A stretch of DNA of 64,000 bases from Podarcis liolepis (lineage: Eukaryota). A program made the translations under genes and the position numbers. Below, in pieces: positions 3,820 to 64,000 of this stretch. The DNA lies in NCBI GenBank assembly GCA_965112155.1, contig OZ218104.1. One strand, given 5' to 3'. Within the stretch, counting starts at the first letter, position 1; the number at the start of each line of letters is the position of its first letter. The notes beneath the pieces were generated by a model, which was not told where the DNA came from, ran no database searches, and worked only from the letters and a program-made list of their open reading frames with translations.

Positions 3820-4989
3820 AATGTCTTTTTTTTCTATCATCCCAACTTTTTTCATCTTTGACCTGAATGCAAAAGTCCATTCTTGTCTTACTTTATGAAA
3901 CACACTCCCTCCTGCTCCAAACACACACAATTTGGAAAAGTGAGTATGAAAACTATTGGGAACAAGAAACTCCTTGTTTGCTTGAGCACAAAATAAAAGA
4001 CGGACACAAAACTGATCCAGTGGAAGGCTTTCCCTTCTTTTTGTGAAAAAGCAAGTACTCTGCTTTACAAAGACTGGCTGATGCCTCGGGGCTCTGACTT
4101 GGGCTACATAGGTTACATAGAGACACCCCACTTTTCATTCATTTGTAGAAAGGAGAAAGCTCTAATCCTTGTCTTCAGTGTTAGTTTTTGTCTCAAGTAC
4201 AATTGCCCTAAAGGCCAATATGCTCTCCCTCAAACTGGTTTCTGTATATTCCTATTGTAACTGTTCTGCCTATTTGGCTTTGACAACCACTGAAGGGCAC
4301 TACTAGTATCCACTGACTAGTTATACCCATGGCAAATTCACATAAGTAAATGCCCAGTGAGAAGGAGGAGGCCTGGAGTCAGTGGACCTGGGAAGCTGCA
4401 CAGAGGGCTTTTTCCAGGGATCCTGGCTACACACCATGTAGAGGCCATACAGGAATGAACAACTCCTGTCTCTGGAGGGAGATGAACCAGGAGGGACAAC
4501 AAGTCCCCTCCAGCATTCCTGTCCATTTTCAAGGCTGTACCATCCCCTATGGAGAGATGGGGCTCAGAGTAGCCCCGAGGGTAGGATTTGAGAGATGAAG
4601 GAAGTGGGAAGAGGAAAGACAACAGGAAGGAACAACAAGTGCCACTCTTAGCACTATCAACAGGACAGGCACTTTCTCTTCCTCTACAGAAATTATGAAA
4701 ATAATTCAAAAGAAAGTGTGGGGGAAAGGCCCAGCGGAGTAGAAAAAGAATAATGTTATCTAACCTAAGTTGCACATTATTACAGCAAATCATGGTCTTT
4801 CCCCACAAAACTAGGACGGTAGCCACCCCCACTACCAGACTCAGTACGATGGATCAGTAATTGTTTTCATACACTTTAATTAGAAAAACTGAGATGGCTA
4901 CGAATAATAATGGAAAGAGAGGCTTTTGCACTTGAAAGGTTGAAGTCAATCAAGTGTGAATGACGGCAAAACCAAAAAGAGAGGAGGGG

Positions 4990-5029
4990 GAGAGAGAGAG
5001 GGAGAGAGAAAGAGAGAGAGAGAGAGAGA
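4990..5029. repeat. (GA)n microsatellite
   Basis: Directly visible imperfect GA run. Confidence 0.9.
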
Positions 5030-6808
5030 CACCAATTCATCAAGCGTCTGTTGTCTTGCCGCGTCTTTAATCATAATTCCTGATTGGGATTCAAGAAGGC
5101 AGTAAGCAGCGATTCTTTGTCTGCCTTCACCTTCCGTCAATTAACTCTCCCTGAAATATAATCATCAACCTCACGTGCTCCTCTGCATTTCAATCTGCTG
5201 CTGCAAGCCAACCAGTTCTTCCTTTCTTCCCACCTTAGGTGTGCTTAACTCATTCCCTTTCTCTAGTGGCATACTGCCCACCCCCCAAGCATTTAAAGGC
5301 AGGAGGCTGAGATGGGGAGGGATGCTCCAAGGACCAAAGGGCCCTGTTAAGAAGTGACTTGAGCAACACCCCAGGTGTCATTTCAGCTCCCTCAAGGACA
5401 TGCTTCTCAGCAAGCAGTAGTCATGAGTGGAGAGCTACAGATCCTTTTAACAAGGAACACCAGTTCTGCTCAGAAGAGGTGACCAAAGCTGGCTTAACCT
5501 TATTTTGTTCACCAATGGTATCAAGGGATTTATGCCTGGAGGGAGCCAAGCTGGTGGAAAGCAAACCAGTGTGCAGCCCCTTCCTTGTTGCTTCCAAATG
5601 GCATGCAAGAGCCTTAATTTCTGCCCGTGGCCCACTTTTGCACTACAGATTGCAGCATTGTGGCATGTCCACCTGCCCCTTCTACTTGACAATGCCCTGT
5701 AGTTTAAGCTACCAGTGTGGGTCTGAGCATTGCAAGATCCCAAATGTCAGCTGATACCCAGCCCAGGTGTTCCCCTATGCCTTCTCCGAAAAGAGACACT
5801 ACCCTAGGCAGTGAGAGGAATGAAGAAAGAGAGGAATGAAGCCCATTCCTCTACTATCTTCTTGTATCAGACCCCATTGTCAGTTCAGGCACTCCCTGCC
5901 CCCTACAACGGCTGGAATCTAATTGGTCCAAAATGAAACCTCCAGCAAGAGTCTGACTGAGAAGACACATTAACATCTCCTCTGTCCGTGCAATGGGGGA
6001 GGGGGGAGTTGTACAAGACGAGGTTCCAGAGCCAGACAAAGGAGGCAATTTCCATTACAAAGAATGAGAGGGAGAGCGGGCAGGAGTGTGTGTGCTGGAG
6101 AGAAAAGCTTCATTAGGCTCAGAGAGGCAAAGCGATGGCACTATACCAAGGTCACTTCTAATTTAGACCATCTAATTGGCAAACATGGCTCCAAATGGCT
6201 ATCATCTCACAGGGCTCAGAATTAATGAAGGCCGATTATTTTCATTACCTTCATCCGAGATGGGGAATGAGACGGGGGGGGGGGGTGAGATGAGGGAGAA
6301 AAGAGGATGACCGAATGACAGTGGAAGGGAGAGAGAGACACACAATGGGGAGAGGAGAAGATGCAAGTAGGGAGAGAAACAGCACCAGAATGCAACTGGG
6401 GAGGAAAGACAGATGAATGATGGAAGGCAAGAAAGAAAAAGAGCTTTTTTACTGCCTTCAGCCCCTCTGATGATTCTGCCAAATCAACAGTCCTACGAAA
6501 AGTGAATCAGCCACAACACTAAAAGCTGGGGGATAAGTCAGTGCTGAGCATAGAGAAGGCAACACACCATCCCCAATCAGAACTGCAGCAGCAGTTTTGG
6601 TCTTCACAACCTCACCCCAACTCCAATCGCTGATCAGCTGGTGTACAACACCCCTCTCATAATTGCCCTTGCCCCACAGACAGTAGTGCAGCACAACAGG
6701 CCTCTGACGAAATGGGGAGAGGACTCCCCTGCTATTGTTGACAGGGAAAGAGGGGGGGCACTGTGGAATACCCAGATACACAGCACACCATGGTATCAGT
6801 AAGTAGCT

Positions 6809-8633: not shown

Positions 8634-8834
8634 CGTCAAAATGAGCTTCTCCACACAGTCCGGGGAGACGCTGTGGAGGTGAGTGAGGTGCAGCTGCAGG
8701 TGGATCTTGTTGCTGAGCATGTCCTGGCAGAGAGGGCACCGAAGCATTGGCTGGACCGAGTGCTGAGTCATGGCATGGACCCTCAACCGGTTGACATCGG
8801 TGTTACTGTACTTGCAATATGGGCACTGATATAC
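8634..8834 (-). CDS. ZFHX3: ZFHX3 coding exon (exon 7 equivalent, 201 nt), two C2H2 zinc fingers
   Basis: ctccag|GTATAT...TTGACG|gtgagt; encodes [67 protein letters not shown]; phase 0-0. Confidence 0.97.
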
Positions 8835-9117: not shown

Positions 9118-9248
9118 CTGCTCCAGCTTGGTCTCATCTGATGTTTTAGGCCATTTGGTGACAGGCGACTCAGAGCTTCTTGGAAAGGAGATACGTTTAG
9201 AGGATGCTGGGGACTCTGTCAGCTCCTTTTCAGCTGGGGTAACATGTG
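9118..9248 (-). CDS. ZFHX3: ZFHX3 coding exon (exon 6 equivalent, 131 nt)
   Basis: tttcag|CACATG...GAGCAG|gtgaga; encodes (A)[43 protein letters not shown], cf. ZFHX3 [24 protein letters not shown]; phase 1-0. Confidence 0.95.
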
Positions 9249-14700: not shown

Positions 14701-15129
14701 ATGAATGGATATTCAACTGTTTTCTTTTCCATTGAACGGAGATCATCTTTAGGCCAGGTGTTCCTGGCATCTCTGAGGAAAGACTCTGGCCAATATTTAT
14801 CTTTATATGGGTTGTTAGATATTTATCTAAGACGACTATAAAAGCATAGAAAATGAGGGCATTGCTAGTTATGTGGGGTACCCCAGTACATTGGAACTAC
14901 CTGGAGAATAATCCTTTCCTTGTGTTTTATAATCTTGGTGTGGCCAAATGTAGCCAGTGCTCTGGATTAAAGGCAACAGCTCCTGAAGTCATTCACTACC
15001 TCTTGGAGCTCGAGCTTTTAAACTTTCACGATCTGTCACTGACCTCAAAAGGCCCATGAAAACAAGAACTTAGCAAGTGTTCCTTCTGTTTTTAATGGGA
15101 CTTCTTGATAAAGTACTGGGAGACAGGTT

Positions 15130-16558
15130 GATCTTCTCTAGAAAGACATCTTTAGACCTGGCCAATATGACCAGCTATCGCCCAGTCGCAAATCTTCCAT
15201 TCTTGGGCAAGGTGATTGAGCGAGTGGTTGCTGAACAACTCCTGGCACGCCTGGAAGAAGTGGACCATTTGGATCCCTTCCAGTTGGGATTCAGGCCTCA
15301 TCATAGGACTGAAACTGTCTTGGTCGCACTGGTCGATCATCTCCGGGAGTGGGCTAGGGACAAAGGTGAGAGCTGTTTCCTAGTTCTGCTGGATCTCTCA
15401 GTGGCTTTTGATACCATTGACCATAACATCCTTCTGGACTGTCTAGAGGGGCTGGGAGCTGGGGGCACTGTTATACAGTGGTTCCGCTCCTTCCTCCTAG
15501 GCCGTGTTCAGAAAGTGGTGGTGGGGGATGAGTGTTCCGACCCCTGGGCTCTCACTTGTGGGGTGCCTCAGGGTTCTGTCTTCTCCCCCATGCTTTTCAA
15601 CATCTACATGCAGCCGCTGGGAGAGATCATCAGGGGGTTTGGGCTGGGTGTTCATCAGTATGCGGATGATACCCAGCTCTACCTCTCTTTCAAATCATAA
15701 CCAGTGAAGGCAGTGAAGATCCTGTGTGAGTGTCTGAAGGCAGCTGGAGGATGATGGCAGCTAACAGATTGAGGGTGAATCCTGACAATACAGAAGTACT
15801 GTTTTGGGGGGACAGGAGGAGGGCAGGTGTGGATGACTTCTTGGTCCTGAATGGGGTAATTGTGTCCCTGAAGGACCAGGTGTGCAGCCTGGGAGTCATT
15901 CTGGACTCACAGCTGTCCATGGATGCGCAGGTCAATTCTGTGTCCAGGGCAGCTGTTTACCAGCTCCATCTGGTACGCAGGCTGAGACCCTATCTGCCTG
16001 CGTACTGTCTTGCCAGAGTGGTGCATGTTCTAGTTATCTCTCACTTGGATTACTGAAATGCGCTCTATGTGGGGCAACCTTTGAAGGTGACCCAGAAACT
16101 ACAACTAATCCAGAATGCAGCAGCTAGACTGGTGACTGGGAGTGGCCACTGAGACCACATAACACCGGTCTTGAAAGATCTACATTGGCTCCCAGGACAT
16201 TTCCGAGGACAATTCCTAAATGGCCTCGGTCCAGTATACCTGAAGGAGCGTCTCCACCCCCATCATTCTGCCTGGACACTGAGGTCCAGCGCCGAGGGCC
16301 TTCTGGCGGTTCCCTCACTGCAAAAACCCAAGTTACAGGGAACCAGGCAGAGGGCCCCCGCCCTGTGGAATGCCCTCCCACCAGATGTCAAAGAGAACAA
16401 CAACTACCAGACTTTTAGTAGACATCTGAAGGCAGCCCTGTTTAGGGAAGCTTTTAATGTTTAACATACCATTGTATTTTAATATTTTTTTGGAAGCCAC
16501 CCAGAGTGGCTGGGAGTAATAATTATTATTATTACTATTACTATTACTACTATTATTA
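15130..16558 (+). mobile_element. 5'-truncated L2-clade LINE with decayed reverse transcriptase
   Basis: RT motifs YRPVANLPFLGKVIE, QLGFR, LLDLSVAFDTIDH, GVPQGS, YADDTQLY, later HITPVLKDLHWLP; stop at 15698-15700 and frameshifts; (TAT/TAC)n 3' tail. Confidence 0.95.
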
Positions 16559-19500
16559 ATGGAATAGCTGCTAAAGCACCGAAAGGAAAAGATAAGCAGC
16601 CAACTGATGGGAAACCATTTCCTGAAGCCCTATCATGTAAGAGACTATCAGGCGGAGTGGAAGCTAGCTGCCCTGCTTGCTCTGCACAAAGGTAATGTAC
16701 AGGAAGGAGGAGTGAATGACTGGGGATAGAGAGGGAAGATGATGAGGAGAAGGGATGTCCAAAGTAGCTGGCATTCCAGGGATATCTAAGGCATTATCAA
16801 CCCACTGTATCTGCCAGCTGCGATTCTCTGGCACCATCTCCAAGGGAATAAGTGTTGCTCTCTCACCATCCTGCTGCCTAGTCACAACAAGGCTGTTTCA
16901 GCTGCAAAGTCAATTTTGGGGAGCAGAGTCCTACCAGTTAACTCAAAAGAGAGAGAGAGAGAGGTTTCCTCAGCCACTCTGGGAGGCTTAAAGCCTTAAA
17001 GTGAAGGCTACACTCATACCAATACAATGAAATGACCCTGGAAATTGTTTTGTACCTTATGAAGTGCACTATGAATCCCTCACCTAAGAAATAGCTCACT
17101 GCAAGAGACAGTTTACTACCAAAAAAGTCTTCCTACTGCTTCAAATTTTCAACACTGAAAAAAGTGTCTCCTTCCATCCATGAGCTGTGAAAAGCAGCAT
17201 AGAGATGAAGCTCAAAGAGCCCAGCCCAGGGTAGGAGGACTGAGGAGGATGGACTCTACCTGACTAAAGACAGTTGCCTCTCCCCTGCCCCCAGTCATCA
17301 GTTTCTCTGAGCTAAAGCACCATTGACAGCCCCTTCATCTAAACTTCCATCTACTAATCCAGCAGCATAATGGAGGAGCCAATTAAATGATTATTAATTC
17401 ATGCTGCTTTCCGTAAAGCTGGGTTCTCATCTCTCTGCATTCCGTAAACCAACTCGCCACCTGCCCCAGAAATTTACAGCAGGACTCACTGACGTTTGCT
17501 CTCTCCATTGATCATACCAGCTCAGCAGCCGGCCAGCATCCCTGAAGCCCAGCTCTCCAACCAGGTAGGTCCTTCTGCTCCACCATGTGGCAATGCTGCA
17601 CCTCAGGTGGCTGATGGCATGACATGGGGTGGGCCTGCTTTGAAGACACCCTTCCTGGGTAAGCTGGAACCATGGAAAAGGAACTACACAGGGTGTGGTT
17701 TGGTCACTTGGACTCCTTGATGGAGGCCTTGTGATGAATGTTAAGCAGAAATGAGACTCAAGAGCTGCTGGTGCTGTTATGTGAGCCATGCTCACACCAG
17801 TGGACCATTGGGGTGATTTGCACAGCACCCCAAGGCTATATTGTGCCCCCTAAGACAGGCGCAGCCAATGAACCCACGAAGGCAGGAGAGGAAAACAGCC
17901 CAAGCAAGGGCTGGTGGAAATTCAAGTCTTGGAAACAGATGCCAAAGAGTGATTCAGCTATGGAAACAAGAAGGAATTATTGTGCCTCACCAACTTCCAT
18001 AAAGAAATGTGGACAAAGTGGGACAATCATCCTTCCTGAAAACAGAGGTCCAAGAGTAGCCACTAGTTTAGCATGAGGGCTGTGCTGGGCCCCAACAGCC
18101 CCTAAGGGAGGGTAAGCAGCAAGTTGCAGAGGCAGACTTGTTAAAAACAGGAAGATAAAAAGAATTAATAAACACTTCCTCTAGCTAATAAAGCTGCCTC
18201 CCCACTTTAATGCTGACCATGCTTTTGGCAAGGAGTAGGAGTTGGTATGCAGCACTTTGGGAAAGAGATATTGACTGGAGAGGAGCAGAATCATGGTGGG
18301 TCCAGTGCATCTTCAATTACCTAGACAATGGCATTGGCAGTTTACCAATAATACAAAATATGCAACCAATAGACTAATGTTCAGAATTATCCTAGTAAGC
18401 TGGAAAATGAAGCTAAAATGTAAATTCAACTAAGAGTTCTACACAACGCCCACAAAAAGCTGGCGAGGGAGTAATCTACAACTAGGCTACAGTGTCTTCT
18501 GAAAGGAAGAGAGCTATGAATCAGGAGCCAGAAAGAAGAAGAAAATAGCCAAAGTAGAGAATTTTAAAAGCAGGAAGATGTTACCCACCTTTTCCAAATA
18601 TCTAAAGAGATGCCAGAATGCCGCATGACTGGGAGGTGGACTGGAGCCATATTGGCTCTGTTCCACTTCTGATTCAATGGATTGGGGGATAAAGAGAGCT
18701 GTACCTCATGTCTTTCACAGAGGATACAGAGTGGGCAGGAAGAAATCATCAGCAACCCAAACCTATGGGCTTTAACAGACAAAGCTCCCCATGCCCTTCC
18801 CAGGCAACACTAATAAATTCAGTTTGTCCCTCATGCTCAGGCACTGAGAAGGTACAGTAGGTACAGATTCCAGGCACAGCTCACCCCAGACCTCCCCATC
18901 ACAGTATCCAGGGCATCTGATGAGACTTGGTTAAACATGACTTCCTGTGAAAATCAGGGGAAAGTTCAGTCAGGATGGCCTTGGCCTGGTTTTTTGGGGG
19001 GGAGGGAATTGCCCCCCCCTTTCCCTACTTTTGCAATTAGAAAGGCAGTGGGCCTGTAGGAATTATTCATAAACAGCAAGAGCTGTGCAGTAGCCATTTA
19101 TGTTAAACATGTCAAACCCAATTGCAATCATGCCTGCCAGCTCTTACTCCATAAACACACTTTTCTGCAACAATTTCCCAGCCCTTGGCAGCCCATTAAT
19201 ACCTCCCCTAATAGCAATCTGCCATGGGTGCGAATTACGGATGCTCTGTTGCACTGATTGCTGCGTTAGGTGAGCCCTGCCGATCTCTAAAAATGGGGAG
19301 CACTTAAAAGCTCTCTGAGCTGGTCTGCCACAACTACTGCTTACTTAATTCATTATCCCTCCCTGTTGTGAAGGCTGAGGGTGAGTTCCAGTGCTGCCAA
19401 ACACATGAAATGTTTCTGGACCAAGATTTTCTTTTGTCTTTTTAATCATTTAGTGACTTTGTGCATCACAGTTGTAAACTATTCACAAATCTTTTAACTT

Positions 19501-20297
19501 CCTACATAAAACCCCATACCACACCCCTTAGGAAAGCAGCCGTATCTGCTCTGGGACTAATTTGTCCAGACTAGAAGGAACAACACTTTCACCTTTGAAA
19601 GGCTCACTGTCTCCTTGTTTGAAAACAAAGTCTAAGAAATCTTTTTTCTTTCTGATACAACCCCTGCTTATCAAGTAAATCTTATTTCAAGGACTGATAA
19701 AATTTTGACAGCTATTATGACTTGAGATGGTCTTCTGCTGCTGGACAAATACAGACCCAAACTGTAGAGTATGGACTGATGCACCAGGCCAGCACAAGAA
19801 AAATTATTCGTAGGATTGGCTGGATAAAGGGTCAGACCTCTCTTTGTCTCTTCTGTCTCTGAATCAGCTCCATACAGAACTGGCCCAAGGATTTCTCTTG
19901 CCATAGTCTTCTGGTTCGTAGGAGGTAAACATCCACCTCAACTGTTCAGAGTGATTCACATTCAGGCTTAGGCAATTTTAGAATTTGCTCTAGATTTTGC
20001 ATTATTTCACAAAAATCCTTTCATCTTCAAAGTTCACTTGTCTTTTTTTTTTTTTTAAAGAAACAGAGCAAGTTCACTCTATATAACACCTCTTTCCTAA
20101 TATAAATATGTACTGCTGCTCTTACAAAACGGGATCAACAAGAGGATACAAAATGCAGACTGACTGGGGATATTCTGACTGAGAGAATGATTAAGACAAA
20201 ATTGAGAACAGCCTCCAAACCCACTGTAGGAAAACTTTCACTCGAGCAAAGTGTGTGAGAGAGAACCAGAGCTCGGCTTCCACTGACTATCACTCAC

Positions 20298-20411
20298 CTG
20301 CCGCCCATTTGCCCTCATCCTTTTCAACAGCAGTCTCTGCATCTTTAACAGGCTCTTCTGGATCGGCAGCTGCCTCACTAGGAGGCCCTTCTGCATCTTC
20401 AATCAACTCCT
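20298..20411 (-). CDS. ZFHX3: ZFHX3 coding exon (exon 5 equivalent, 114 nt), acidic linker
   Basis: Polypyrimidine tract plus tttcag|AGGAG...GCGGCAG|gtgagt; encodes (E)ELIEDAEGPPSEAAADPEEPVKDAETAVEKDEGKWAA, matching ZFHX3 [23 protein letters not shown]; phase 1-1. Confidence 0.93.
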
Positions 20412-21114
20412 CTGAAATGGGAGAAGAAAAAGAAGGAAAAGAAAGAGGTAAAAACTGCACTTGACACCTGCAGCAATGTTGCCTTAAGTCACTTCTTCTA
20501 CCTTCCCACATTTGCTCCTACAATGGACTCTGGGTTGTTTCCCATCTCATTTGGGAATCCTCAGGTGCAGCCCCAATACATGCTCCCTTTAACTCCAAGT
20601 CATAGCAGAAACTGAGCGGCTGAAAAGGGACCCAAAGGGGGTCCTGGTGGAGAAGCCTTAGCAATTGCATGGCAGGGAGGCATGCAGTAGGTGCTATAGG
20701 AGCAACAGAAGTTGTGGCCACTGCTTCTTACAAGCAGTGTTAGAAACTCAGATATATAACCTAATTGCCAAATGGCACCTTAAACCTAGGTTATGGTCAC
20801 CACAACGGTATGTCTAGGCACCATTTCCCCCCAATGGGATTTATTATTACACTCTGTTGCCTACCTGCTTAAGAAAGCTGGAGAGGCCAGCTAGATGGAG
20901 ATGTCAAGTCACCAACTTGGAATCCAGAGATCTCCATGTGCTCACAATTGAACCCACACCAGACACAAAACACACCTGGCACCTGGCTAATTTCTAACAC
21001 TGCTTACAAGCTCACTGGATACAAAGCTCAGGCTAGGAGTCTATGGATTCAATTTACATCTTTTTCCCTGGATAATCCCCTAAATCTCCTGGGAAGAGCT
21101 TTAGTTTGGCCTCC

Positions 21115-21600
21115 AAATTTATTTACCGTATTTCATTTGCATGCCACCTACACAACCAAATGCTCTGCATGGTTTGCAAACATTGAAAAACAGAATACAA
21201 TCCACAATTTTTCACAATAAAACAGTAAACCCAAAATAAAGTAAGTCAACGATAAACAAAAACAACCCCCCAAAAACCAACAAACTATGACTATAAATAC
21301 AAATGAATGAACATACACAGGAGCTAAACCAATTTAAAACTGTCAAGGGAATGTACATATTGTGGTTAAGTGTCCCGAGAGAAAAAGGTCTTTTCACCAG
21401 GCACTTAGCAGGGGTGCCAAAAGAGCCTCTCTAGGCAGCCCATTCCATAACTGGGGCTGCACCAACAAGGACCAGTCCCTAGCAACTACACACATCACTT
21501 CATTAGGCAGGGAAACCTGGAATCTCAGGGTCCATGCAGGTATATACAGGAGGTGGCAATCCTTGAAGTAACCTGGCCCCAAGCCATTTGTAGCTTTAAA
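21115..21600 (-). mobile_element. L2 LINE 3' fragment
   Basis: ORF 21394-21672 FKATNGLGPGYFKD...LWNGLPRE, the L2 C-terminus. Confidence 0.75.
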
Positions 21601-22904
21601 ACAGTGATGGATAACATTTTTTTTTAGCCTGGGGGATGTGTATTGTTCTGGGGAACTTTCCAGGGGCCACATGCCAGTGGTGGGCAGTGCTAGAAGCAGA
21701 AGTGGATGGAGAGGAGAACGCCATTTTCACCTTTGTACAGTAGGCTAATTTCTACGCAAACTCACACAACCCTCTATCCTCTATGCAGCTAAGATAGGGG
21801 CTCTGTCTGAGTTCAAGGACATATTCCAGCCAGGTAAAAACACTGCTGACAGGGCTGGTATGCAGCTGAAGGGAGGACAGAATCGGACCAGAGATTAGAA
21901 GGCAGGTAGAAAGCTCTGAAAACTGACAACCCATGCTAGTTACTGACCAAGGCTGTGGAGGGGAAGGTGACAAAGCTAACTTTCACCATATTAGAAAGCA
22001 ACCTGAATAAAGCATCAGCCAATCAGCTCACAAGCATTTGGAAACAAACAGGTAGTCATCATCAGTTAGTATACATCTGATAATTCCACTTGGCTCTTCA
22101 GTCCAACCAACCTAGTCAAGCAGATAAAATGGGTGTGATGTGTACCTTGGGGTCTGGCCATCAGCAGTGCTTTTGAAATGGCCCCACATTGTGGTCAGTC
22201 TGCACCCATGGGAGTGTCAGGTCTCAAACTTGCCTTGAAATCACACAGTATCCCCAAAGCCCTGTCCTCTGGGTCCTAGGTTTGGACAGTCTGTTTGGAC
22301 TGAATAGTGAGAGTAAGACATCCCATCTGTGCCTGAAGCAGTAAAGTAAACAGAACACCCAGGAAAGATAGTCACACCTGTTCTTTAGCACTAGGTAGCC
22401 ATCAAAAGCATTGTACCACACACACAGCACAACACCAGGGGCCAAACTGCTTTGTATTGATATCACATACTTTTGTGGGGTGGGGGAGTTCTATCAAAAC
22501 ACCCACTGAAGTATAAGTTGCAAAGTTCCTAAAAAGAGGAAGCTGCAGCAGTACTGTCCATTCTCGTGCCATTCACTGTCTGCACTCTGTGACCCTCACG
22601 TGAGAACTCAGCAAAATTTGTGTGTGCCTCAAGGATCCAATAGGCAGTGAAGCAACTAGTGATGAGAATTTAAGATTGGCCTCCTGGCAGGAGAAGAATC
22701 TCCTTCCTCGCTTTATCAGCAGAGAAAGCATAAAGCTAGTTGGGATGCAAAACACACTGATTGTGCATCTTCTATGGAAAGGAGAGGAGGAGATATAGTA
22801 ATGCTTAGTACGTCTATAAAATGCTTGAGTGTTAAAAGTACTTCATTGGCACATGGGCCAAGCCTGGAGCAGCTCCATGGCTTTGAATAAACCTTCCTCT
22901 AAAG

Positions 22905-24025
22905 AGATCTGCCCACTTATGAGGTAGACTAGGTTGAGGGACACCCAGTGAGCTTTGTGACCAAATGGTTATTTGAACCCATAGTGCTCTAGGGCAGTGT
23001 TTCCCAACCTTTTTTGGGCAAAGGCACACTTGTTTCATGAAAAAAATCTCGAGGCACACCACCATTACAGCCCCGTGACGTCAGCGCGCAGCGTCACGCC
23101 GGGAGGGACGCACGAAAGTGTAAGTTTCAATTTTTTCCCCTCCCCCTTGCCTTCCTTCTGTGCCAACCGCCAAAAAGCCAAGACTTTAGGGCAGCAGGTC
23201 GACACGGAAGAAGCTCCTACCTAAGGACAGGTGCGACGGCCGTGTCCTCTTCTGCCACACTTGGCAGCCCTGCCTCACGGTCGTGACTCCCACCCTGATT
23301 TCTCCCCGCAGGTCGAGCGGCACAGGCAGCCCAATGTGTCCAGCCCAGACACAAGCCCCGCTTCCCCACTCTAGATCCTGAATGCGACCAAGTGCTCTGG
23401 ACTCCCGAGCAGGGTGGGAAAGAGGACTCGCATCTGGTAGCCTCCGGGCTCCTCGCCTGCTCGAGGGATGGCATTGCAGGCAAGCTGCCGGCCGTCGCCA
23501 TCGCCGCCCCCTCATGCGAGTGGACCTGCCCGGAGTGGTGGGCCGGGGGAGGCTCGCTCTCTGTGGGGATGTGGCCCGCACGCGCGGCCCCGCTTCCTCC
23601 TGCCCAGGGCTGAGCTCCTTACCCGCGATCTCGGTCTCGCGCACGCGGATCCCACTTATTCTGAAGCTCGCGCCACTAGCCGGGGCTCTCACACCGTGCC
23701 AGGGCGAGGCGGCGCGGCCCACTGACGTCATCGCGGCTCGCCCCCGCCCTCGACTTCCCTGTTCCCTCCCCTCCCTCGGGTCGCCGTGGTTACCGAGGAC
23801 TGCAAGCTGCTCGGGCGAGCGTGGGGCATTAAGTGGGAGAAGGAAAATTAAAATTAAAACTCGCCTGAAGGCCGCCTCTCCGGATATGAAGCTATCTTTC
23901 GAATTTTTTAATTTTTCCCGCGGCACACCAGGCAACATCTCACGGCACACTAGTGTGCCGCGGAACAGTGGTTGGGAAACACTGCTCTAGGGAGCATCCA
24001 ACACACTAACCACTGTACCACACTG
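22905..24025 (-). mobile_element. MIR/CORE-like tRNA-derived SINE interrupted by the hAT element
   Basis: Removing 22995-23992 rejoins cagtgTGGTACAGTGGttagtgtgttgga...gGGTTCAAATaacc...aagctcactgggtg (Pol III box A and box B) on the minus strand. Confidence 0.65.
22995..23984. mobile_element. Non-autonomous hAT (Charlie-type) DNA transposon, 990 bp, CpG-rich interior
   Basis: Perfect 15-bp TIR CAGTGTTTCCCAACC; perfect 8-bp TSD CTCTAGGG (22987-22994, 23985-23992); subterminal GGCACAC repeats; no transposase motif. Confidence 0.95.
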
Positions 24026-24528
24026 CACTGCTGGAGGAAGAACATTCATGCCCTTACTTGCTCTTATTTAAACAAGCTTATAGAGGCTGAACTGGTGGTG
24101 AAGCCTGGAGGAACAATTTCCAGCTGCAGATGCTTTTACTAGATGGGTGGGGTATTATTCTTATTCTTATTATTCTTATTATTAATTACTGTTAAGACTG
24201 GTGGCTGTTTAATCTAGGGACTACTGGCTCCATCTAAGCTTTACCTTTAAGCAAGAAGAAAATGTGGGCCTCCTGAGCAGTCTTTCTCCTCCAGTCAAAT
24301 GTTGGAAAAAGCTCCTCAAAGGAAGAATAATGCCCACCAAGCAAGCCCCTTCTGGCCCAGCCATGCTGAAGGTCCCCTGCAGTCCCAGCAGCTACCTAGA
24401 GGTGTCACCCTCTCCAAAGCAAGCAAAGGATTGCTGGCCAGCCGCCTGGCTGCTAAGTTGCGACTGGACTGTCTGGGCTCCCCTTCGAAGCATGTGGAAA
24501 TAATATACGTCTTCCAGCAAACTGTCTG

Positions 24529-24660
24529 NNNNNNNNNNNNNNNNNNNNNNNNNNNNNNNNNNNNNNNNNNNNNNNNNNNNNNNNNNNNNNNNNNNNNNNN
24601 NNNNNNNNNNNNNNNNNNNNNNNNNNNNNNNNNNNNNNNNNNNNNNNNNNNNNNNNNNNN
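24529..24660. other. Assembly gap (132 N)
   Basis: Run of N. Confidence 1.
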
Positions 24661-27339
24661 GTGAGCTATGAATACCAATAAAGGTAGAAAAATGATTAAA
24701 AAACAAGGATACACACTGCAAATTTCTCTCCTCCGCTCTGCTGCCTTGTTTTATTGGCTAGCCCTGCAAAGGAGATACTGTCTCTCAAGAACCAACCTGC
24801 AAATGGGGGGCAGGGGGGGCGTAAGGAGGACAACACTGGTTATAACAGCAGAAGAAGCCCATTATTTGGGGTGGGAAGGGAAGGGTAGGGAAGCAGCTCA
24901 GCACTGACCTCAGGCACTCAAGAGCCCTTCTTTCTAGGATTCCCCAAAAACATTAAACAGTGGCAGCAGTGCCTTTCATGTGTAGCGGGAGAGAAGCCCC
25001 TCTGCCTCCTGCCAGCGCTCCACTGCAATTTCATTAGGGGAAATTCTTTTTTTAAAAGCAGCTACAAAGAGAGCATTAGGCATAGGCAACTACAGGGTGG
25101 TGGTGGATGACCACTGTGGCTGGGGACAGAGAATGGAAGGCAGAGTGTCACTAGTCTAGTCCCAACCTTTCCAACATAAAGTGAGCACACAAACACAGAC
25201 ACATAGCATTCTCCTAGAGCTGAGGTCCTTCCCCCAGCCCACACTGGGAACTCCCCCAACTAAAGAAAGAATAGCCCATGTGGTAAAGCTCCCGCCTTCA
25301 ATCCTTGGGCTCAGCTCATGCTTCAGCAGCAGCACCCAGAGTCTTTACCCCCTCCCCTTGTAGGCACCTCACCCAGGTGTCTTTTTCCAAATAAGCATTT
25401 CAAGGAGGCCACCAGCATTGAAAGGGAAGGGGGAGCATCACCTGGAGAGGGACTAATTCTGCTAGCTAGCAAGATGAGCCTAAGTCTCACAAGTTATGCT
25501 TAGGCCCTTACTGTAATGCCTTATCCCAGCCCCAAGTTACCGATGGAACACTTTTACTTTGGCCAGGAAGGACAAAAACCCCACAGACCTCTGAGGGGCA
25601 AGCAAAGGGTGAGCAAAGCTCTTGCAAGGTGTGCTGGGTCCCACATGGATGCCACAGGGCCTGTCTCTTCTGCTCCTACAAACTTGGCAGACAGGCCATG
25701 ACTTCCTGAGACAGGATATGTTCCTATGTCCCAAGCAAGGTCTGATCAGTGTGAACCAAAAAGAACAGATTGCAGGAGTTGTCTGGTAGAGACCAGCCAG
25801 GCGCCTCCCCAGACAACTGATGCACTTGCTGACCCCCCTGAATCATTCCTTAGCTGTGGGACTTGGAAATCCAAATAATTTCATGCTTGTCCTGCTCAAA
25901 GTTATCCACAAAGGAAGGCTCAAGTCAGAGGGGGTTTTTTGCCTCTGGTGAAACAAACGTTGTAGACAAACCCTATTTCTCAAGAGGAGGCATCTCCTCC
26001 CGGCCCTTGGTGAAGTGCACAGAATTTCCAATCTAAGCTTAGTCAAGAAAATAGGCCTCAGCCCCCACCTCCAATCAAAGGACAAAAGGCCCCACGACTC
26101 CTGCTCCTTCACACATCCTGACGGACAGCCTTAAAGCCCTGCATGGACAATCCACCCACTTCCATCTGGAAAATAGCCAGGCAAACAGAGCCTTTCCCCC
26201 CTCTCCATTCCCTTAACAAAATGACAGCCCCCTCGTCCAAACACTTCAAGGGCTTGCAGGGTCTGGGGTGGAAAAGGACAACAAGAAAGGAGGGAAGTAG
26301 AGCATGTTTGCCTCCCCACTCCCGCCCGTTCCAGTAGACTCAAGAGCCGAGAAACATTAGCTGTCACGAACCACAATCAAATCGGGTTTGAAATATTTAG
26401 CAGTGGCTTGGAAAATGCGATGGTGCAGCTCTGACAGGCGAGATGGGCACAGACACCCATTTTCCATTATAATGGAAATATCCAGCCTGTTCTGAATATG
26501 TATAACCCAGAAAAATGTATTGATTTTTCATTCAGCATAAAAAAAATTGAAATACCCTGCAGCTGTCAAAAGCCTTTTGTTAAAAGCTCATCTTCCTGGA
26601 ATGAGGTTTACCAGAAACAAGTTTTAATTGTACACAGGCTGCTTCTTTGAAACACAGAAGGATAACCCACCCACCCCCACCCACCCTGTTAGCAAGAAAA
26701 ATTCCTACTATGTCACCCCCCACTCCGCTGCCTCAACAAGAGACTGCTCCCATCATTGGACAGTAATAAGCAGGCTGCAGCCCTGGCATAAGGGTGTGTT
26801 GAATTTTTCAACTTTTAACTTCCAAAAATAAGGAGTGCTAAAAAGTTGTAACATGACTTGGGAATTCAAAATATATTTTGGTTAAACTAATATAATTAAA
26901 TTTTACTTGGTAAGTAAAATGTGTGTAAAATGGCACAGAAATCATTTTAAAAGAATGTCAAGTGCTTGCAGTTATATTACATATTAATATTCTTATTCTT
27001 ATTTATTGTTATTTCACAATACCTGACATATTCAGAAGATAAAATTAAAATCTTTTGGTTTTCCAAAAACAGTTTATGTGCTTCCTTATCAAATGTAGAC
27101 TTACCAAGCTAGGACTTACCACTGGACAATATTTTTGTCTAATCACAAAAATATTAGCAGATTTGAATTTCTTACCCCAAAACATATTTTCAAGACCCCT
27201 CACTGAAGAAATTTGCAAAAATTAGGTTTCACCCTCTAAAATGACACTGTCAGAAGCTGGAATGACACTGGGAACCTCCATGAGGAGAGCAGCAGTAGAG
27301 ACAAATAGCTTGAGACTGCCAGGTCATTGGCCCAGATAT

Positions 27340-28194: not shown

Positions 28195-29565
28195 ATCTCA
28201 TCTCACAGACTGGCTACAATACCACCAATTGAACGCCATCTTCAAGGTAGATAAAAAAATTGGTTTTGCGATAGAAATATCGGAATAAGAGAAAGGTCTA
28301 TTAAAAAATAAAGACAAATTACTTTCCAAAATGTACAGACTACAGTGGTGCCCCGCAATACGAAAATCTCACTAGACGAAAGGGTTTTGCGGTTTTTGAG
28401 CTGCTTCACAAGACGAATTTCCCTATGGGCTTGCTTCGCAAGACAAAAACGTCTTGCAAGTTTGTTTCCTTTTTCTTAACACCGTTAATAAGTTGCGACT
28501 TGACTTCGAGGAGCAACTCATAGAACGCCGTGTGGTAGCCTTTTTTGAGGTTTTTGGTGATTTTTGAAGCTTTTCCAAAACTTTTCCGACACCATGCTTC
28601 GCAAGACGAAAAATTCGCTAGACGAAAAAACTCACGGAACGAATTAATTTCGTCTTGCGAGGCACCACTGTATTGCTAGACTGGGAAGTGAAAGAAGAAG
28701 TAAAATCAGTTATGGTGCGGTGGGTGAAGGACTTTGGATATAACATACAGGTGGTGGAATGGGAAAATTTATGGAGAAGGGAACTGAAATTTACAGCTTG
28801 TTTTACTATAAAAGAAAACTTTATGAAGATGCTATACAGATGGCACTTCACCCCCAGCAAATTGGCCAAAATGTACAAAATCAACTCAAATTTATGCTGG
28901 AGGTGTAGAGAGCTAGAGGGAACAATGTACCACATGTGGTGGGGTTGTAAAAAAATTAAGAGTTTTTGGGATTATTATTTTTTAACTGTTTAAAATAATG
29001 TTTATCAAAAAACCTGAAGCCTTCCTCTTAGGCATTATGGCATCAGACATCCCAAGAGAGAAAAGGAGGATTTTTTTGTTTGCAACAACGGCAGCGAGGA
29101 TGCTGATTGCCAAGGAGTGGAAAGGAGATAAAATTCCATCAAAAGAGGAGTGGCAAGTTAAACTGCTTGAATATATGGAACTAGCGATTATGACGGAAAA
29201 GATCAGGGATAGATCAACCCAAAAGTTTTAAAAGGAATGGGAGATTTTAGGCAATACCTAAAAAAAATTGTCCCCCACATTAAAACTTTAGAATGCTTTG
29301 AATAACTCTCGGAATTGCATAAGGTATAAATAAGATTTAATACAGGTTATGTTTATTGAAAAATAGGGGCAAGTAACAAGGAAACAAAGAACCCACCACA
29401 CCAAGGAGGTCGGAAGTCAATGGCTGAAATATTTTTGTTTTCGCGTTGTACTGTTTTCTTGTTTTTTCTTTTTTTGATTTGTAAGTTGTGTGCTGTGGGG
29501 TCCCCCTGCCCCCATGTGTATCTGTGTCATTTATAAACCAAATAAAGATGGAATTTTTTAAAAAA
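28195..29565 (+). mobile_element. 5'-truncated L1-clade LINE (ORF2 C-terminus plus 3' UTR)
   Basis: KENFMKMLYRWHFTP...CWRCRELEGTMYHMWWGC cysteine-rich CCHC motif, PEAFLLG, AARMLIAKEWK; AATAAA and A-rich tail; stops and frameshifts. Confidence 0.9.
28343..28670. mobile_element. Tc1/mariner (Tigger/pogo-like) MITE nested in the L1
   Basis: TIR CAGTGGTGCCCCGCAATACGAAA / TTTCGTCTTGCGAGGCACCACTG; TA TSD on both sides. Confidence 0.92.
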
Positions 29566-30029: not shown

Positions 30030-30195
30030 TGCTCGGGCGAGCGTGGGGCATTAAGCAGGAGAAGGAAAATTAAAATTAAAACTCGCCTGAAGGCCGCCTC
30101 TCCGGATATGAAGCTATCTTTCGAATTTTTTAATTTTTCCCGCGGCACACCAGGCAACATCTAGTGTGCCGCGGAACAGTGGTTGAAAAACACTG
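30030..30195. mobile_element. Right-end fragment of the same hAT family as 22995-23984
   Basis: Near-identical to 23808-23984 apart from an 11-bp deletion and a few substitutions; ends in GGTTGAAAAACACTG. Confidence 0.93.
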
Positions 30196-52392: not shown

Positions 52393-52624
52393 CAGCATCA
52401 GGGGCGGAGCACTTCTGGATGGTGAAGATCTGGCCCAGGTCCTCCTCTTCTTCGGGAAGGCCCTTCTGTAGGCGCTGCAGCTTACGCAGACTCTCACTCC
52501 GTTGGTGCTTCATGGAGCGAACATGCTGAATGAGATTTAGTTTGGCCTTGGTGGAGTAGTTACATAGGACACAGTGGTAGAAGCAGCTTTCCCCATCAAC
52601 TCCACTCTCATGATGCTGAAGGTG
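52393..52624 (-). CDS. ZFHX3: ZFHX3 coding exon (human exon 4 equivalent, 232 nt), C2H2/matrin-type zinc finger
   Basis: Minus strand tttctgcag|CACCTT...GATGCTG|gtgagt; translates [77 protein letters not shown], near-identical to recalled ZFHX3 sequence; phase 0 in, phase 1 out. Confidence 0.97.
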
Positions 52625-58571: not shown

Positions 58572-60830
58572 GACTTTTTCCTGTGGACAATTTGACTCTA
58601 AAGTAATTACCCGTGAGTAGAGCTGAATCGGGAAGAACTGGATTTTTAAACGTTTAATCTGGCATCGAAACGGGGAGGTTCAATACAGGAAGTCCGCCTC
58701 CCCCTTTTGTAGATAAACTGAAGCAAGGAGGCTGCAAGCTAAAGTCTTGGAAAGCCTTTTGTAAAAGACTAAAATTCCATAGGTAAAGAACTAACCCCCC
58801 CCCCCTTTGGAGACAGGAGAAGAGGAACAGGAAGTGGTGGACTGAATATGCCTGTAGGAGAGAGTTAAGAGAGTTAAAATACCCTGGAAACGGGCTGCTA
58901 GCAGGATTGATGTTTTTTGGAACGTCCATTGACAGCATTTAGAACATTCATTGACAGGTAGCTAAACAAGAGAATACCGTATTTTTTGCACCATAACACT
59001 CACTTTTTTCCTCCTAAAAAGTAAGGGGAAATGTCTGTGCATGTTATGGAGGGAATGCCTACGGGTGGCATGCCTACGGATTTTCCTCCTCTAAAAACTA
59101 CGTGCGTTTTATGGTCGGGTGTGTGTTATAGAGCGAAAAATACGGTACATTGTTTCTACTGTCTCTGGTTGTTTTCAAAAAAAGGAGGAAAGTAACTGAA
59201 GATTGAAACTAACTTTGGATTATTGAAACTGTGTTTAAAAGAGGACATACTGACCGATACAAATAGAAACTGTTTTACCCTTGTGGAAGCTTTTGAAATT
59301 GGTTACTTTACAGGAGCTGGGCTAGGGGAATTTCCAGCTGCAAGACAAAAAAGTGTGAGACTTTGGAATTGACCTTGAATCTCTTAAGTGTTATGGCAAA
59401 CGGAAAGGAAAAAACAGATGGGATGTCGACAGAAGAGGCCTTAGTGGCTGCATTATTGAAAATAAACGATTCGCTGGAACAACTTCACAAGAAAACAGAC
59501 ATGATAAATGTGAAAATGGATGCTGCAAATATTGAAATTGACTTAATCGTAGAAAGTTTAAATAACTTGGGACAAAAGGTGAATACCAATTCAGAAACCA
59601 CCCAGAAACTGACACAGGAATCTACTCTGATACGGCAAACTGCAGATGAAGTCAGGGAAAAAACCCTTGCTGCTGAATCTAAAGCAATACAACTGGAGAG
59701 GAAAGTCCCATCCATACAAAGACAACCTGATGAACATAAGCTGACATTCGTTATGATTGAACTTAAAGAAGAACAGATGAATTTGAGGACCAGAGCCCTA
59801 TCTGAACTGGAAAAGGAAAGCTTGACAGAGTTTCAGGAGGCGACAGGACTAACATCGGTTGAGAAAGAGAGGTATTTGGGGGTTAGTATGACCGCCAAAA
59901 ATGTGAATCTGTTTAAGGATAACTGTGAAGGATGTTGGATTGAAGAGAAGGGGGATTTGGAAATATGGACAAATCAGAAGTTGTTACTGTTGGGCCGAGT
60001 TACTGTGGTGGGGATGAGGGCTGCTGTGTTGCTGGGGATGTTGCTTTTGTTTCAAACATTGCAAGCTTTGGATGGGATGGATTGTTGTGGCAGAGGTGGC
60101 AGAGGGATGTTTTTAGAGTTGTTTGGCAGGGCAGGAAGCCTCGAGTAAAACTTAAGATATTGATGGATGCCAAAGAAGGAGGTGGACCTGCCCTGCCAGA
60201 CCTTTAAATTTCATTGTGAACCATCTGCTTTTTGCTGGTTGAGAGAAGGGCTGCTTCTTGAAAACACTGAAGTGTTGGACAATGGCAGACGAAGTTGATG
60301 GACTATATGGAATTGGCAGAAATGACTGGCAAGATCCAAGACCAGGGAGAAGAGTCGGTGGAAGAAGATTGGAAAAAGTTTAAAGACTATTTATAGAAAT
60401 ATTGTAAAATTAAGGAATGTTAGAAAAATGTTGGAATGAAGTTATATGGCTTTAGTAGAAATGTCATAAGGAATTAAGTCTAAATAGATTAATAGAAAAT
60501 TAAAGGAAAAATAAGGCAAGAATGTGTTAAGATAATTATAGGATAGAAAACAGAGTAAGATGGAAAGGAATTGCTGAAACAATTAATAGAAGTGGAATAC
60601 AAAAAGGGAGGTGTGAGGAGGTCGCTGGAAATAAGTGAATGAAATGTAAGATATTGAAAATGTTTGAGGTGTTTTTAAATTGTTTTTGTTGGTTTTTGCT
60701 TTGTTTTGTTAGTCCATGTAGCGTTTTTGTATTGTATTTGTATTGTTTTTTCTCTTTTCTTTTTTGTTTGTAGTGTTGTGTTGAAAATGTTGAAAAAGTA
60801 ATAAATATCATTTTTTTAAAAAAAAAAACA
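58572..60830 (+). mobile_element. Internally deleted L1-clade element with 5' UTR, ORF1/ORF2 fusion, 3' UTR and poly(A)
   Basis: TSD TGTCAGAGAAG at 58561-58571 and 60831-60841; coiled-coil ORF1-like region fused to RYLGV...LLLLGRVTVV; then WQGRKPRVKLKILMDAKEGGGPALPDL and LMDYMELAEMTGKI; AATAAA and A tail. Confidence 0.87.
58977..59145. mobile_element. Tc1/mariner MITE (169 bp) nested in the L1 5' UTR
   Basis: TIR CCGTATTTTTTGCACCATAACAC / GTGTTATAGAGCGAAAAATACGG; TA TSD. Confidence 0.9.
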
Positions 60831-61325: not shown

Positions 61326-62365
61326 TTATCATGAGGAAAGTAGACAAAGAGGGCAGGTGAGAAGCTTTGGGTTCAACCTATAGCAGTAAAATCACTCAGT
61401 AGGTTCTGTGAAGGTCATATATTGGGCCCAGATACCTTCATGTTGCCAAAATTTTAGGACAACTGCATAGAGACAAGTGAAGGTAGGCTACACACAGTTG
61501 TTTCAAGGGGGAGTTGCATCTTCAACTTTGCATGCAGTAGAGTCAGACATGCCCCTGTACATTGAAGGACATCTCCGCTCTTCTGGGCCAAGAAAATTCT
61601 CACATGGTGCCCTCAGCTTTTCCCAAATGTAGCCACTCTCAGGCCTCTGTGGTTTCTCCATCATTAAGGTATACATTAAAAGTCAACAAAAAGGTGGCTC
61701 AAGGAACTAAGCATAATTCATGCAAAGCAGTTTTAGAGAAAGGGAACAGAGGTCTCCGCAGCAAGTGCCAGAAACTATTGATTAACTGAACACCACAATT
61801 AAGACACATAAAACCAGGACTTAAAAATGAACTCACTTTTATGCTTCTTCTACCCCAACACTGCACGGATCCTAGCTGACATAGTCATACATGGCTTGTT
61901 CACGTCACTGTTACAGAAGGCTTCTGCGTTTTATAAATAGTTAAACTCCCTTTTATATCTCAGGGCAGATTAGAAATTGCAACTGTCACTGCAGCAAGCA
62001 GTAGTCAACCATCTCCCCATGGACAACTGCTCTGTGAAGCCTGTGCTAAGAGTGGCAGAAGCAAGCAAAGGTGCTGCTGTTGCTGGGACTTCTAAACCCT
62101 TCTTCTGCCCCTTCCACAGAACCAAAAGGCAAATCTATTTTAGGGCAGTATTTCAGATTGCTCACCCCTTTGCTTTCCCCCATCCATTCCAATACAGAAA
62201 TGGCTGGCCGGCCCAAGGTTTGTTCCTCTACCAACACCTACATGCAATGGAGTCTCTGTCAGGATCCCCCATAAACAACAGAAACACACGGCCGGCAGGT
62301 GGATTTTTGCTCCACCCTTGAAGCCTCATTAAAAGCCAATATTGCTCAGCCTAAAGATGGAGAGC

Positions 62366-62745
62366 NNNNNNNNNNNNNNNNNNNNNNNNNNNNNNNNNNN
62401 NNNNNNNNNNNNNNNNNNNNNNNNNNNNNNNNNNNNNNNNNNNNNNNNNNNNNNNNNNNNNNNNNNNNNNNNNNNNNNNNNNNNNNNNNNNNNNNNNNNN
62501 NNNNNNNNNNNNNNNNNNNNNNNNNNNNNNNNNNNNNNNNNNNNNNNNNNNNNNNNNNNNNNNNNNNNNNNNNNNNNNNNNNNNNNNNNNNNNNNNNNNN
62601 NNNNNNNNNNNNNNNNNNNNNNNNNNNNNNNNNNNNNNNNNNNNNNNNNNNNNNNNNNNNNNNNNNNNNNNNNNNNNNNNNNNNNNNNNNNNNNNNNNNN
62701 NNNNNNNNNNNNNNNNNNNNNNNNNNNNNNNNNNNNNNNNNNNNN
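62366..62745. other. Assembly gap (380 N)
   Basis: Run of N. Confidence 1.
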
Positions 62746-64000
62746 ATAGCCCCAACTGGCTTAATGAGGAGGGGCTAAAGCCCAGAGGGAGGCAAGAGCC
62801 CGGCTGCAGCACAAGCCAGCTAAACAGATCAGTCCTTAACGAGGCTGCTCTGCATGCAGGTTTCAGAGAGCAACACGGCCTCCTCCCCAGGGACAGGTGG
62901 ACACGCAGCAGTAGAGATGGGACCAAGCAAGTCTTCCCCAATTGCACAGCAGGCCACAGAATCCTAATTAATCACTCACTACAGCCATTCCGAAAGACAG
63001 AAGACTGTTGGGCTGCGGGGCCCTTAGGCTGCACAGTGGAAAGACCAGAAGCCAGCAGCAGCAACAAGATCAAGAGGCCTAGAAGCAGAAACCATCCCTT
63101 TCAGGTGTGCACATGCCAGCCTCCTTGCAGAATAATGGTATGGAACTATGAACACGCTAGAAGGGGGCAAAGAATGTATGCAGAAGGTACCTTGAACCTG
63201 ACCATTTCTTTGGTGAGGGCTTCCACAGCTCTTTGGCCACAATGAGAGAAGGCAGGAAAACAAATGTTCGGATAAATCTCCTCAATTCCTAAGCATAAAA
63301 ATGTGACTGTCTTCTCAGAAGTTACAAATCCTTACATCAGGTTGGTTCACCTAAATGATCACACTATGTTTATGAGCAAGGCTGAACTGATGGGGAGTAC
63401 ACATTTTATGAAAAAAACATGCCTCTTATAAAGTTCCCATCCCTACCACCGTTATCCAATTTTTCTGGAAGCCTGCAAAATAGGCTAAAATATCCAGCAA
63501 GAGATGCAGGAAGCATTGCCCTCACTCTGATTTGGCTTCATGAAGTCACCTGATTGGCTAGGTGGTATTACTAGGCAGTCCATTTAGAGTGAAGGCAATG
63601 CTTCCTGCCCTTACTCTGATTTTGCTCTGTGACAATACAAATATGACTGGTTGCATTATGACTTTGTATCATTATTTTTGTCTATGTGATCCCAAACTAC
63701 CTAGCTTGTAAATTGACATAGAACCAAGAAGCTTCTAACAAGCTGCAAACAGCACATCTAAAATATTTTTAGATGTTCTTAATATTTTAATTATATTGCT
63801 TTGCTACTTTACCATACCACCTTTGGGAGGAAGGATGGGGTAGAAATTTAATAATTAATAAAAGTAGTTTTTAAAGAAAGGTATTGGGGGATGAAGCTTA
63901 ACCTGACACTTTTTGTTGGTGAAAATTCAGCATACATTTTAGCTCCACAAACTAGTGTAGTAGCTCTGGAAGATGGACACACTCACTTGGAAGTTAACAG

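Follow-up and report, generated by a model that had tools for sequence, protein, structure and literature searches.

Pack-MULEs are plant cut-and-paste elements of the Mutator family that carry fragments of host genes. They are mentioned in work on bat Helitrons, for which the capture of a promoter and its spread by a vertebrate DNA transposon have been documented (PMC4778049). HelibatN3, one of these Helitrons, can truncate host genes; its cargo is a promoter captured from NUBPL together with six codons and a donor site (PMC4778049). Among hAT elements, Mar of Drosophila willistoni is a Buster MITE with short TIRs, a TSD of the nnnTAnnn type, no coding capacity and many copies; it arose by internal deletion, and the interiors of MITEs are often AT-rich (PMC3517528). 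The autonomous Buster elements AnBT and TcBuster are 2.5–3.0 kb long with one ORF (PMC12637253). ZFHX3 has a native short form in mammals, ATBF1-B, which lacks 914 aa and can oppose the long form (PMC9727999).

The element described here lies in an intron of ZFHX3. Like HelibatN3, it is a non-autonomous DNA transposon in which promoter-like motifs, an ATG and a splice donor stand between the transposon ends and are common to copies, and a sense intronic copy could give an N-terminally truncated host protein. Unlike HelibatN3, it has the TIRs and 8-bp TSD of a cut-and-paste hAT, and both the capture and the use of its promoter are putative readings of the sequence. It resembles Mar in its short TIRs, nnnTAnnn TSD, lack of coding sequence and many copies, but its interior is a transposase-free CpG island. 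Its ends are of the same type as those of AnBT, TcBuster (PMC12637253), the metagenomic locus L006 and the P0010/P0013 transposase group, whereas its 990 bp hold a cassette instead of a transposase ORF. If the putative capture is correct, it would be, like a Pack-MULE, a cut-and-paste carrier of a host fragment. The hypothetical product would be an N-terminally shortened ZFHX3 like ATBF1-B but would come from an insertion that is likely unfixed, and by human numbering it would presumably lack about 1150 aa. A search of an open-access library found no case of promoter capture by a hAT element or in a squamate and no mention of the present family or insertion. The main object of worth is the family-wide cassette together with the likely segregating copy in ZFHX3.

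The element and its host intron

The window, the whole stretch of 64,000 nt that was analysed, contains four minus-strand ZFHX3 exons that form a single reading frame with zinc fingers (Table 1). From human exon sizes we take them to be exons 4–7, with 52393..52624 as exon 4 and 20298..20411 as exon 5. The intron carrying the element is 31,981 nt long and of phase 1, and an acceptor AG stands directly before position 20411. The 114-nt exon contains an internal near-repeat (GAAGATGCAGA / AAAGATGCAGA), and its human counterpart is presumably shorter, at 81 nt.

Table 1 Coordinates of the element, its motifs, a second copy and the surrounding ZFHX3 exons
Feature	Position	Strand	Remarks
Non-autonomous Buster-type hAT element	22995..23984	-	990 bp, same sense as ZFHX3, without transposase remnant
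5' TIR	23970..23984	-	15 bp
3' TIR	22995..23009	+	15 bp, identical to 5' TIR
TSD CTCTAGGG	22987..22994	+	8 bp, nnnTAnnn type
TSD CTCTAGGG	23985..23992	+	8 bp, second side of element
Upstream ATG, frame of candidate exon	23936..23938	-	105 codons to donor
RFX X-box-like motif GTAACCACGGCGAC	23780..23793	-	0 differences in family deep contig
GC box AGGGCGGGGG	23741..23750	-	family-shared core GGGCGG; base 23743 differs in ZFHX3 copy
CRE palindrome TGACGTCA	23723..23730	.	with preceding A spells candidate ATG
Candidate first exon, ATG to donor	23623..23731	-	109 nt, phase 1
5' splice-site motif CGG|GTAAGG	23617..23625	-	best sense-strand donor of element
Second CRE	23076..23083	.	within 19-bp repeat, 84% identical to first
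Second family copy, 5' end only	30030..30195	-	91.5% BLAST identity, 11-bp gap, preceded by CTCTAAGG
ZFHX3 exon, 5' of host intron	52393..52624	-	232 nt, ends phase 1
ZFHX3 exon, 3' of element	20298..20411	-	114 nt, phase 1/1
Following ZFHX3 exon	9118..9248	-	131 nt
ZFHX3 zinc-finger exon	8634..8834	-	201 nt; first in-frame AUG if element ATG untranscribed

The TSD consensus of Buster elements is nnnTAnnn (PMC3517528), and their TIRs are short, at 5–27 bp. The element combines an 8-bp TSD of this type with short TIRs, ends related to those of L006, a multicopy family and a non-coding interior, as expected of a non-autonomous Buster-type hAT. Sites of the same type are found beside the second, truncated copy, which lies 6 kb away in the same orientation (CTCTAAGG), in reads (TCCTAGAC) and beside L006 (GGGTAGAC), in addition to CTCTAGGG at the element itself. 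Helitrons are TIR-less with rolling-circle ends, whereas the element has TIRs and an 8-bp TSD.

L006 (positions 1–2539 of a metagenome contig) is a near-complete autonomous hAT with an intact, intronless ORF of 620 aa, and it matches the element at both ends with 79% identity over 43 and 70 bp. Because both ends align to this autonomous relative, the element can be oriented in the sense of ZFHX3. The closest relatives of the L006 protein carry the names ZBED5-like or SCAND3-like, which we take to denote the Buster clade, a class assignment by names and ends that is tree-free. The non-coding ends of L006, about 250 and 430 bp long, are AT-rich and cassette-free. Its transposase gave no match to solved structures and a single Pfam match, to a zinc finger, below the cut-off. 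Intact relatives of this transposase occur in Podarcis muralis, and the Buster-type group P0010, P0013 and P0129–P0142 shows 84–97% identity to the P. muralis model P0013 in 8 pairs. The hosts of this group are lacertids including P. muralis, Xenopus tropicalis, a gecko, a garter snake, a caecilian and a spider, to which the cluster adds a newt and more frogs; for the frog, gecko, snake and spider the identity is 88–97%. This pattern suggests that the group may have spread by horizontal transfer. The L006 contig also contains an intact LINE ORF of 1265 aa on the opposite strand.

No trace of a transposase was detected in the element among 138 proteins (120 matches of the L006 protein and 18 cluster members; best E value 0.057), and four element frames gave no Pfam family. 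Rfam returned a single sub-threshold match over 19000–27000, outside the element. DNA patterns of the element ends had no match in viral contigs; in metagenome contigs they gave none at first and then six loci with the 3'-end pattern, five of which align over only 22–42 bp at one end, L006 being the exception. A role of the candidate exon as first exon of the family transposase was rejected, as six N-terminal extensions, including one of 48 aa from four P. muralis models, matched the element no better than shuffles. When the flanks of the element are rejoined (22930–24040, minus strand), A-box-like and B-box-like motifs that the insertion has split come together, presumably resembling the head of a tRNA-derived SINE; BLAST found no second copy of such an older SINE within the window.

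The promoter-like interior and the candidate first exon

CpG islands are conventionally longer than 200 bp, with a GC content above 50% and a CpG observed/expected ratio (o/e) above 0.6. The element, at 990 bp, 62% GC and 79 CpGs, has an o/e of 0.85 against 0.19 for the window as a whole, and the ratio falls from 1.18 over the motifs and the candidate exon to 0.68 and then 0.58 past the donor. The GC box at 23741–23750, the X-box-like motif at 23780–23793 and the CRE overlapping the ATG, all reported in the initial annotation, were recovered in place, the X-box being judged by its consensus. In CpG-rich DNA, promoter strength depends strongly on CREB and RFX motifs, and motifs of the CRE, RFX and GC kind act as promoters in reporter assays (PMC4971761); Sp1 and CRE count as cardinal elements of the proximal kind (PMC3820735). 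As judged from these motifs, the interior likely has promoter potential.

Among 2000 dinucleotide shuffles of the element, one CRE appeared in 0.65% and two, as in the element, in none. The GGGCGG core was present in 69%, and the X-box has no valid null in this comparison because its strict pattern misses the real site.

The sequence of the candidate exon was also confirmed: as annotated, the ATG at 23731–23729 (context GCCGCG-ATG-A) opens 36 stop-free codons plus one base, exactly 109 nt, up to 23623. The claimed phase-1 match to the acceptor at 20411 holds as well, the join reading in the ZFHX3 frame (…TEIA-E-ELIEDAEG…), as expected of a transposon-derived first exon, and the fusion frame stays open through three ZFHX3 exons. 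Upstream, no stop interrupts the frame as far as the TIR; a further ATG in this frame stands at 23938 and one out of frame at 23829, and between the candidate ATG and the donor there is no further ATG. By a simple matrix of donor-site base frequencies, the donor CGG|GTAAGG, present as claimed, scores 9.2 bits, close to the 9.4–12.0 bits of the four native ZFHX3 donors. The sense strand of the intron has seven equally strong donors, two of which have an upstream phase-1 ATG, and a frame of at least 30 codons is found at the candidate alone. In the shuffles, an equally strong donor occurred in 22.7% and a donor with a phase-1 ATG frame of at least 30 codons in 2.7%.

The position of the ATG relative to the motifs bears on whether it would be transcribed. 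In human cells, the distribution of functional promoter motifs has its maximum at -50, and that of SP1 near -60 (PMC13017510). With such spacing, RNA would be expected to start near 23700–23680, downstream of the ATG. The ATG is moreover part of the CRE, its letters being the first of A-TGACGTCA. CpG-island promoters initiate over a broad zone, and some starts could take in the ATG. Starts above 23731 would yield a product with the 36-residue N terminus. Otherwise nine out-of-frame AUGs, each followed by a stop, precede the first in-frame ZFHX3 AUG two exons on, and for that reason little protein would be expected and the RNA would likely be decay-prone. The predicted short product would keep the nuclear signal and the homeodomains, the latter presumably C-terminal to the loss. 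The nuclear signal of ZFHX3 is KRK at 2615–2617, and deletion of aa 1–1311 leaves nuclear entry intact (PMC3961433).

On the opposite strand, at 23076–23125 (+), the second CRE is succeeded by GC-rich sequence and AGT|GTAAGT, a donor-like site (6.8 bits) directed inward and antisense to ZFHX3. The plus strand also has two acceptor-like tracts ending near 23311 and 23607.

Family copies, alleles and RNA

Reads over 20150–24300 were examined in four of the 24 listed runs: X1 and X11 (DNA), X15 and X23. Six runs guessed as RNA share 0.22–0.27 of words with the locus; none is recorded as RNA, and one of the six was examined; X15 is treated as RNA by guess only. In X1, single interior contigs have depths of 4672–5460 against 38 for the unique flank (122–142 times), and in X11, from a relative, an interior contig has a depth of 4543 against 11.5–18.3 (250–400 times). 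These ratios are approximate, as they come from single contig records, and summed depth does not equal copy number. The deep interior contigs of both runs show 0–1 substitutions and one 12-bp indel, and the element is likely present in more than 100 near-identical copies. The copy in ZFHX3 differs from family contigs at about 2 substitutions in about 670 bp.

The cassette is shared across the family. The X-box and donor are unaltered in the deep contigs, and a 772-nt contig of X15 with six listed differences retains the ATG, donor, CRE and X-box. P0001, a protein encoded by another copy in the unspliced frame, retains the ATG and donor, and both of its amino-acid differences lie at codons with a CpG (CCG, P>L; GCG, A>V). 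Over 52 residues, the element frame shares 96% identity with a gene model of P. muralis, so that the window probably derives from a related lacertid. The sole motif base particular to the ZFHX3 copy is 23743, in the GC box. Because the motifs, ATG and donor are common to other copies, the phase match tells little about ZFHX3; the same match would arise for any sense insertion into a phase-1 intron, and it is expected at several loci per genome. Much shorter sister subfamilies with the same ends are also visible in the reads, as a joint 23017–23919 that skips 901 bases and as loose ends at 23067, 23127 and 23916, and some of them carry other GC-rich interiors. X1 further contains a joint from 23985 back to 22995, as in a tandem pair or a circle.

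In both DNA runs, the flank contigs end exactly at 22994 and resume exactly at 23983. Simulated 31-mer graphs gave these breaks in six of six cases when both alleles were present, breaks at 23013–23017 and 23962–23967 in six of six with the filled allele alone, and an unbroken path in six of six with the empty allele alone. The observed breakpoints match the both-allele case. Hence both individuals, which belong to two species, likely carry filled and empty alleles, judged by the breakpoints, the empty-site joint being outside those listed. The ZFHX3 insertion is likely unfixed. The flanks of the X1 and X11 organisms differ at 28 of 2206 bases (1.3%), and for more than 2 kb the X1 flank contigs are identical to the window, an agreement hard to square with a polymorphism that is old and shared, unless both assemblies picked the same alleles. 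The two-species pattern may stem from shared ancestry, from introgression, from more than one insertion at a favoured site or from recurrent precise loss; comparison of copy divergence with the species split (P = 0.20) gives no date.

X23 is raw RNA from a relative, sampled at about 12% of the run. Across the interior there are about 3 to 10 plus-strand first mates for each minus one. An excess of this kind denotes element-sense RNA in the usual stranded protocol. The depth of these mates is 42.8 upstream, 47 over the exon, 59.8 at the donor and 54.9 beyond it, and no pile-up of starts was found across the element in X23 reads. The reads carry 23695T in 38 of 47 and 23743G in 48 of 50, and the ZFHX3 copy differs at both positions. 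Reads leaving both TIRs share the TSD TCCTAGAC, which points to read-through of a copy elsewhere inside a host transcript; this copy possibly belongs to a shorter subfamily. The family RNA of the relative is unspliced across the motifs and donor and comes mostly from other copies, one of which dominates. A copy in a last exon would stay unspliced despite a good donor. Neither a joint nor a loose end at 23623 is present among those listed for X23, where the listing shows 15 of 31 joints and leaves out 687 loose ends. The depth of the acceptor exon (20411) is zero in X23 and X15 and even in the DNA run X1, in line with the filter of the tool, and X23 has no unique intron reads, so that this look at the junction is without a positive control. 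In X15, the contig spans the donor unbroken at a depth of 306, and two unique intron contigs with depths of 2.1 and 5.4 may be pre-mRNA or DNA.

Fusion of the 36-aa peptide to other sequence was seen in none of 15 candidate proteins of 318–2000 aa, the range covered; among seven proteins of 99–317 aa the peptide occurs in one, P0001, in the unspliced frame and without fusion. Protein searches found no homologue of the peptide elsewhere. P0003, among three representative-protein matches, is a repetitive algal protein with 25% identity and was dismissed as a chance match.

Proposed cassette function and its possible consequences

The locus is probably explained by a young, multicopy, non-autonomous Buster-type hAT element with a portable promoter-plus-first-exon cassette, whose frame match to ZFHX3 is coincidental and whose short ZFHX3 product is rare or absent. 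A Buster transposase acting in trans would insert the element at a TA-centred site, and the interior, if unmethylated, would start RNA mostly around 23700–23680, below the ATG. Translation of the spliced product would encounter out-of-frame AUGs before any in-frame one and so yield little ZFHX3 protein, and the element would most likely be removed with the intron from full-length ZFHX3 pre-mRNA. An island of 800 bp is hard to derive by simple deletion because autonomous Buster elements are 2.5–3.0 kb long with one ORF and the L006 ends are AT-rich. The chances are about even that the interior is a captured host promoter with exon 1 and the start of intron 1, which is the preferred origin; it may instead be a promoter of the element's own lineage.

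The initial annotation proposed that the ZFHX3 copy could supply an internal promoter; in this model RNA starts above 23731, splices from 23623 to 20411 and encodes 36 new residues that replace the N-terminal third of the protein. Its anatomical part stood: a frame open across three ZFHX3 exons, a donor of near-native strength in a configuration seen in few shuffles and with the sole long phase-1 frame among the seven donors, a CpG island in the sense of ZFHX3 that holds the CRE, X-box and GC box, and a filled allele apparently in both DNA runs. HelibatN3 provides a precedent (PMC4778049), mammals have the N-terminally shorter ATBF1-B (PMC9727999), and the loss of aa 1–1311 is compatible with nuclear entry (PMC3961433). 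The proposed activity in ZFHX3 fared worse, as the motifs are family-wide, the ATG lies within the CRE and likely upstream of most starts, the RNA of the relative passes the donor unspliced, with neither a fall in depth nor a listed joint, and the predicted fusion protein is absent at 99–2000 aa. An active internal promoter of this kind is improbable, and a truncated ZFHX3 protein from the element is just as doubtful. It is similarly hard to credit the full scenario in which a lizard hAT captured a CpG-island promoter, spread as hundreds of live exon traps and, through a ZFHX3 copy that segregates in at least two species, yields a truncated homeodomain isoform in carriers.

Two milder alternatives are both unlikely, if somewhat less so. 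RNA may start below the ATG, or the interior may serve as a CpG island or enhancer within the gene, the result being spliced RNA that is non-coding or prone to decay, or an altered ZFHX3 level, and no new protein. The motif spacing (PMC13017510) and the nine out-of-frame AUGs are consistent with this, the three bona fide bat NUBPL-driven transcripts mostly acquired a new 5' UTR (PMC4778049), and CREB and RFX motifs act as both enhancer and promoter (PMC4971761). However, RNA specific to the locus is unseen, the two intron contigs of X15 being possibly pre-mRNA or DNA. Alternatively, the interior may be inert, CpG-rich through youth and methylated after insertion, with its motifs unused. In line with this, a nearby mariner-like element also has a high o/e (1.36), young elements here being CpG-rich anyway, the changes in P0001 at CpG codons are as methylation-driven decay predicts, and the RNA is accounted for by read-through. 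Against inertness stand the two perfect CREs, unmatched in the shuffles, the order of X-box, GC box, CRE and donor with a drop in o/e from 1.18 to 0.58 that mimics a real promoter, and the few substitutions relative to family contigs.

With the portable cassette as the preferred reading, 100–400 near-identical promoter-like copies would place several in-frame exon traps in each genome, or about eight per 130 copies on the assumption that 40% lie in introns, that half of these are sense insertions and that 30% of introns have phase 1. If the insertion is heterozygous as proposed, one animal serves as its own control, and allele-specific RNA would be directly informative. If, as in the improbable full scenario, the copy in ZFHX3 is live, its presence or absence would decide whether an animal makes a new isoform of this regulator of development and circadian rhythm.

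The window has N runs (assembly gaps) at about 24530–24660 and 62360–62750, the first about 550 bases upstream of the element. A broken LINE reverse transcriptase lies at 15074–16464 (+) in a ZFHX3 intron (Pfam RVT_1, E value 5.8e-28). A 283-aa open frame at 59297–60148 (+), rich in coiled-coil-like residues and with no Pfam match, is possibly a remnant of a retroelement ORF1. About 4 kb from the hAT, a 331-bp element at 28341–28672 with TA-flanked inverted ends (CAGTGGTGCC), which we take to be a Tc1/mariner-like MITE, sits inside an antisense LINE-like fragment.
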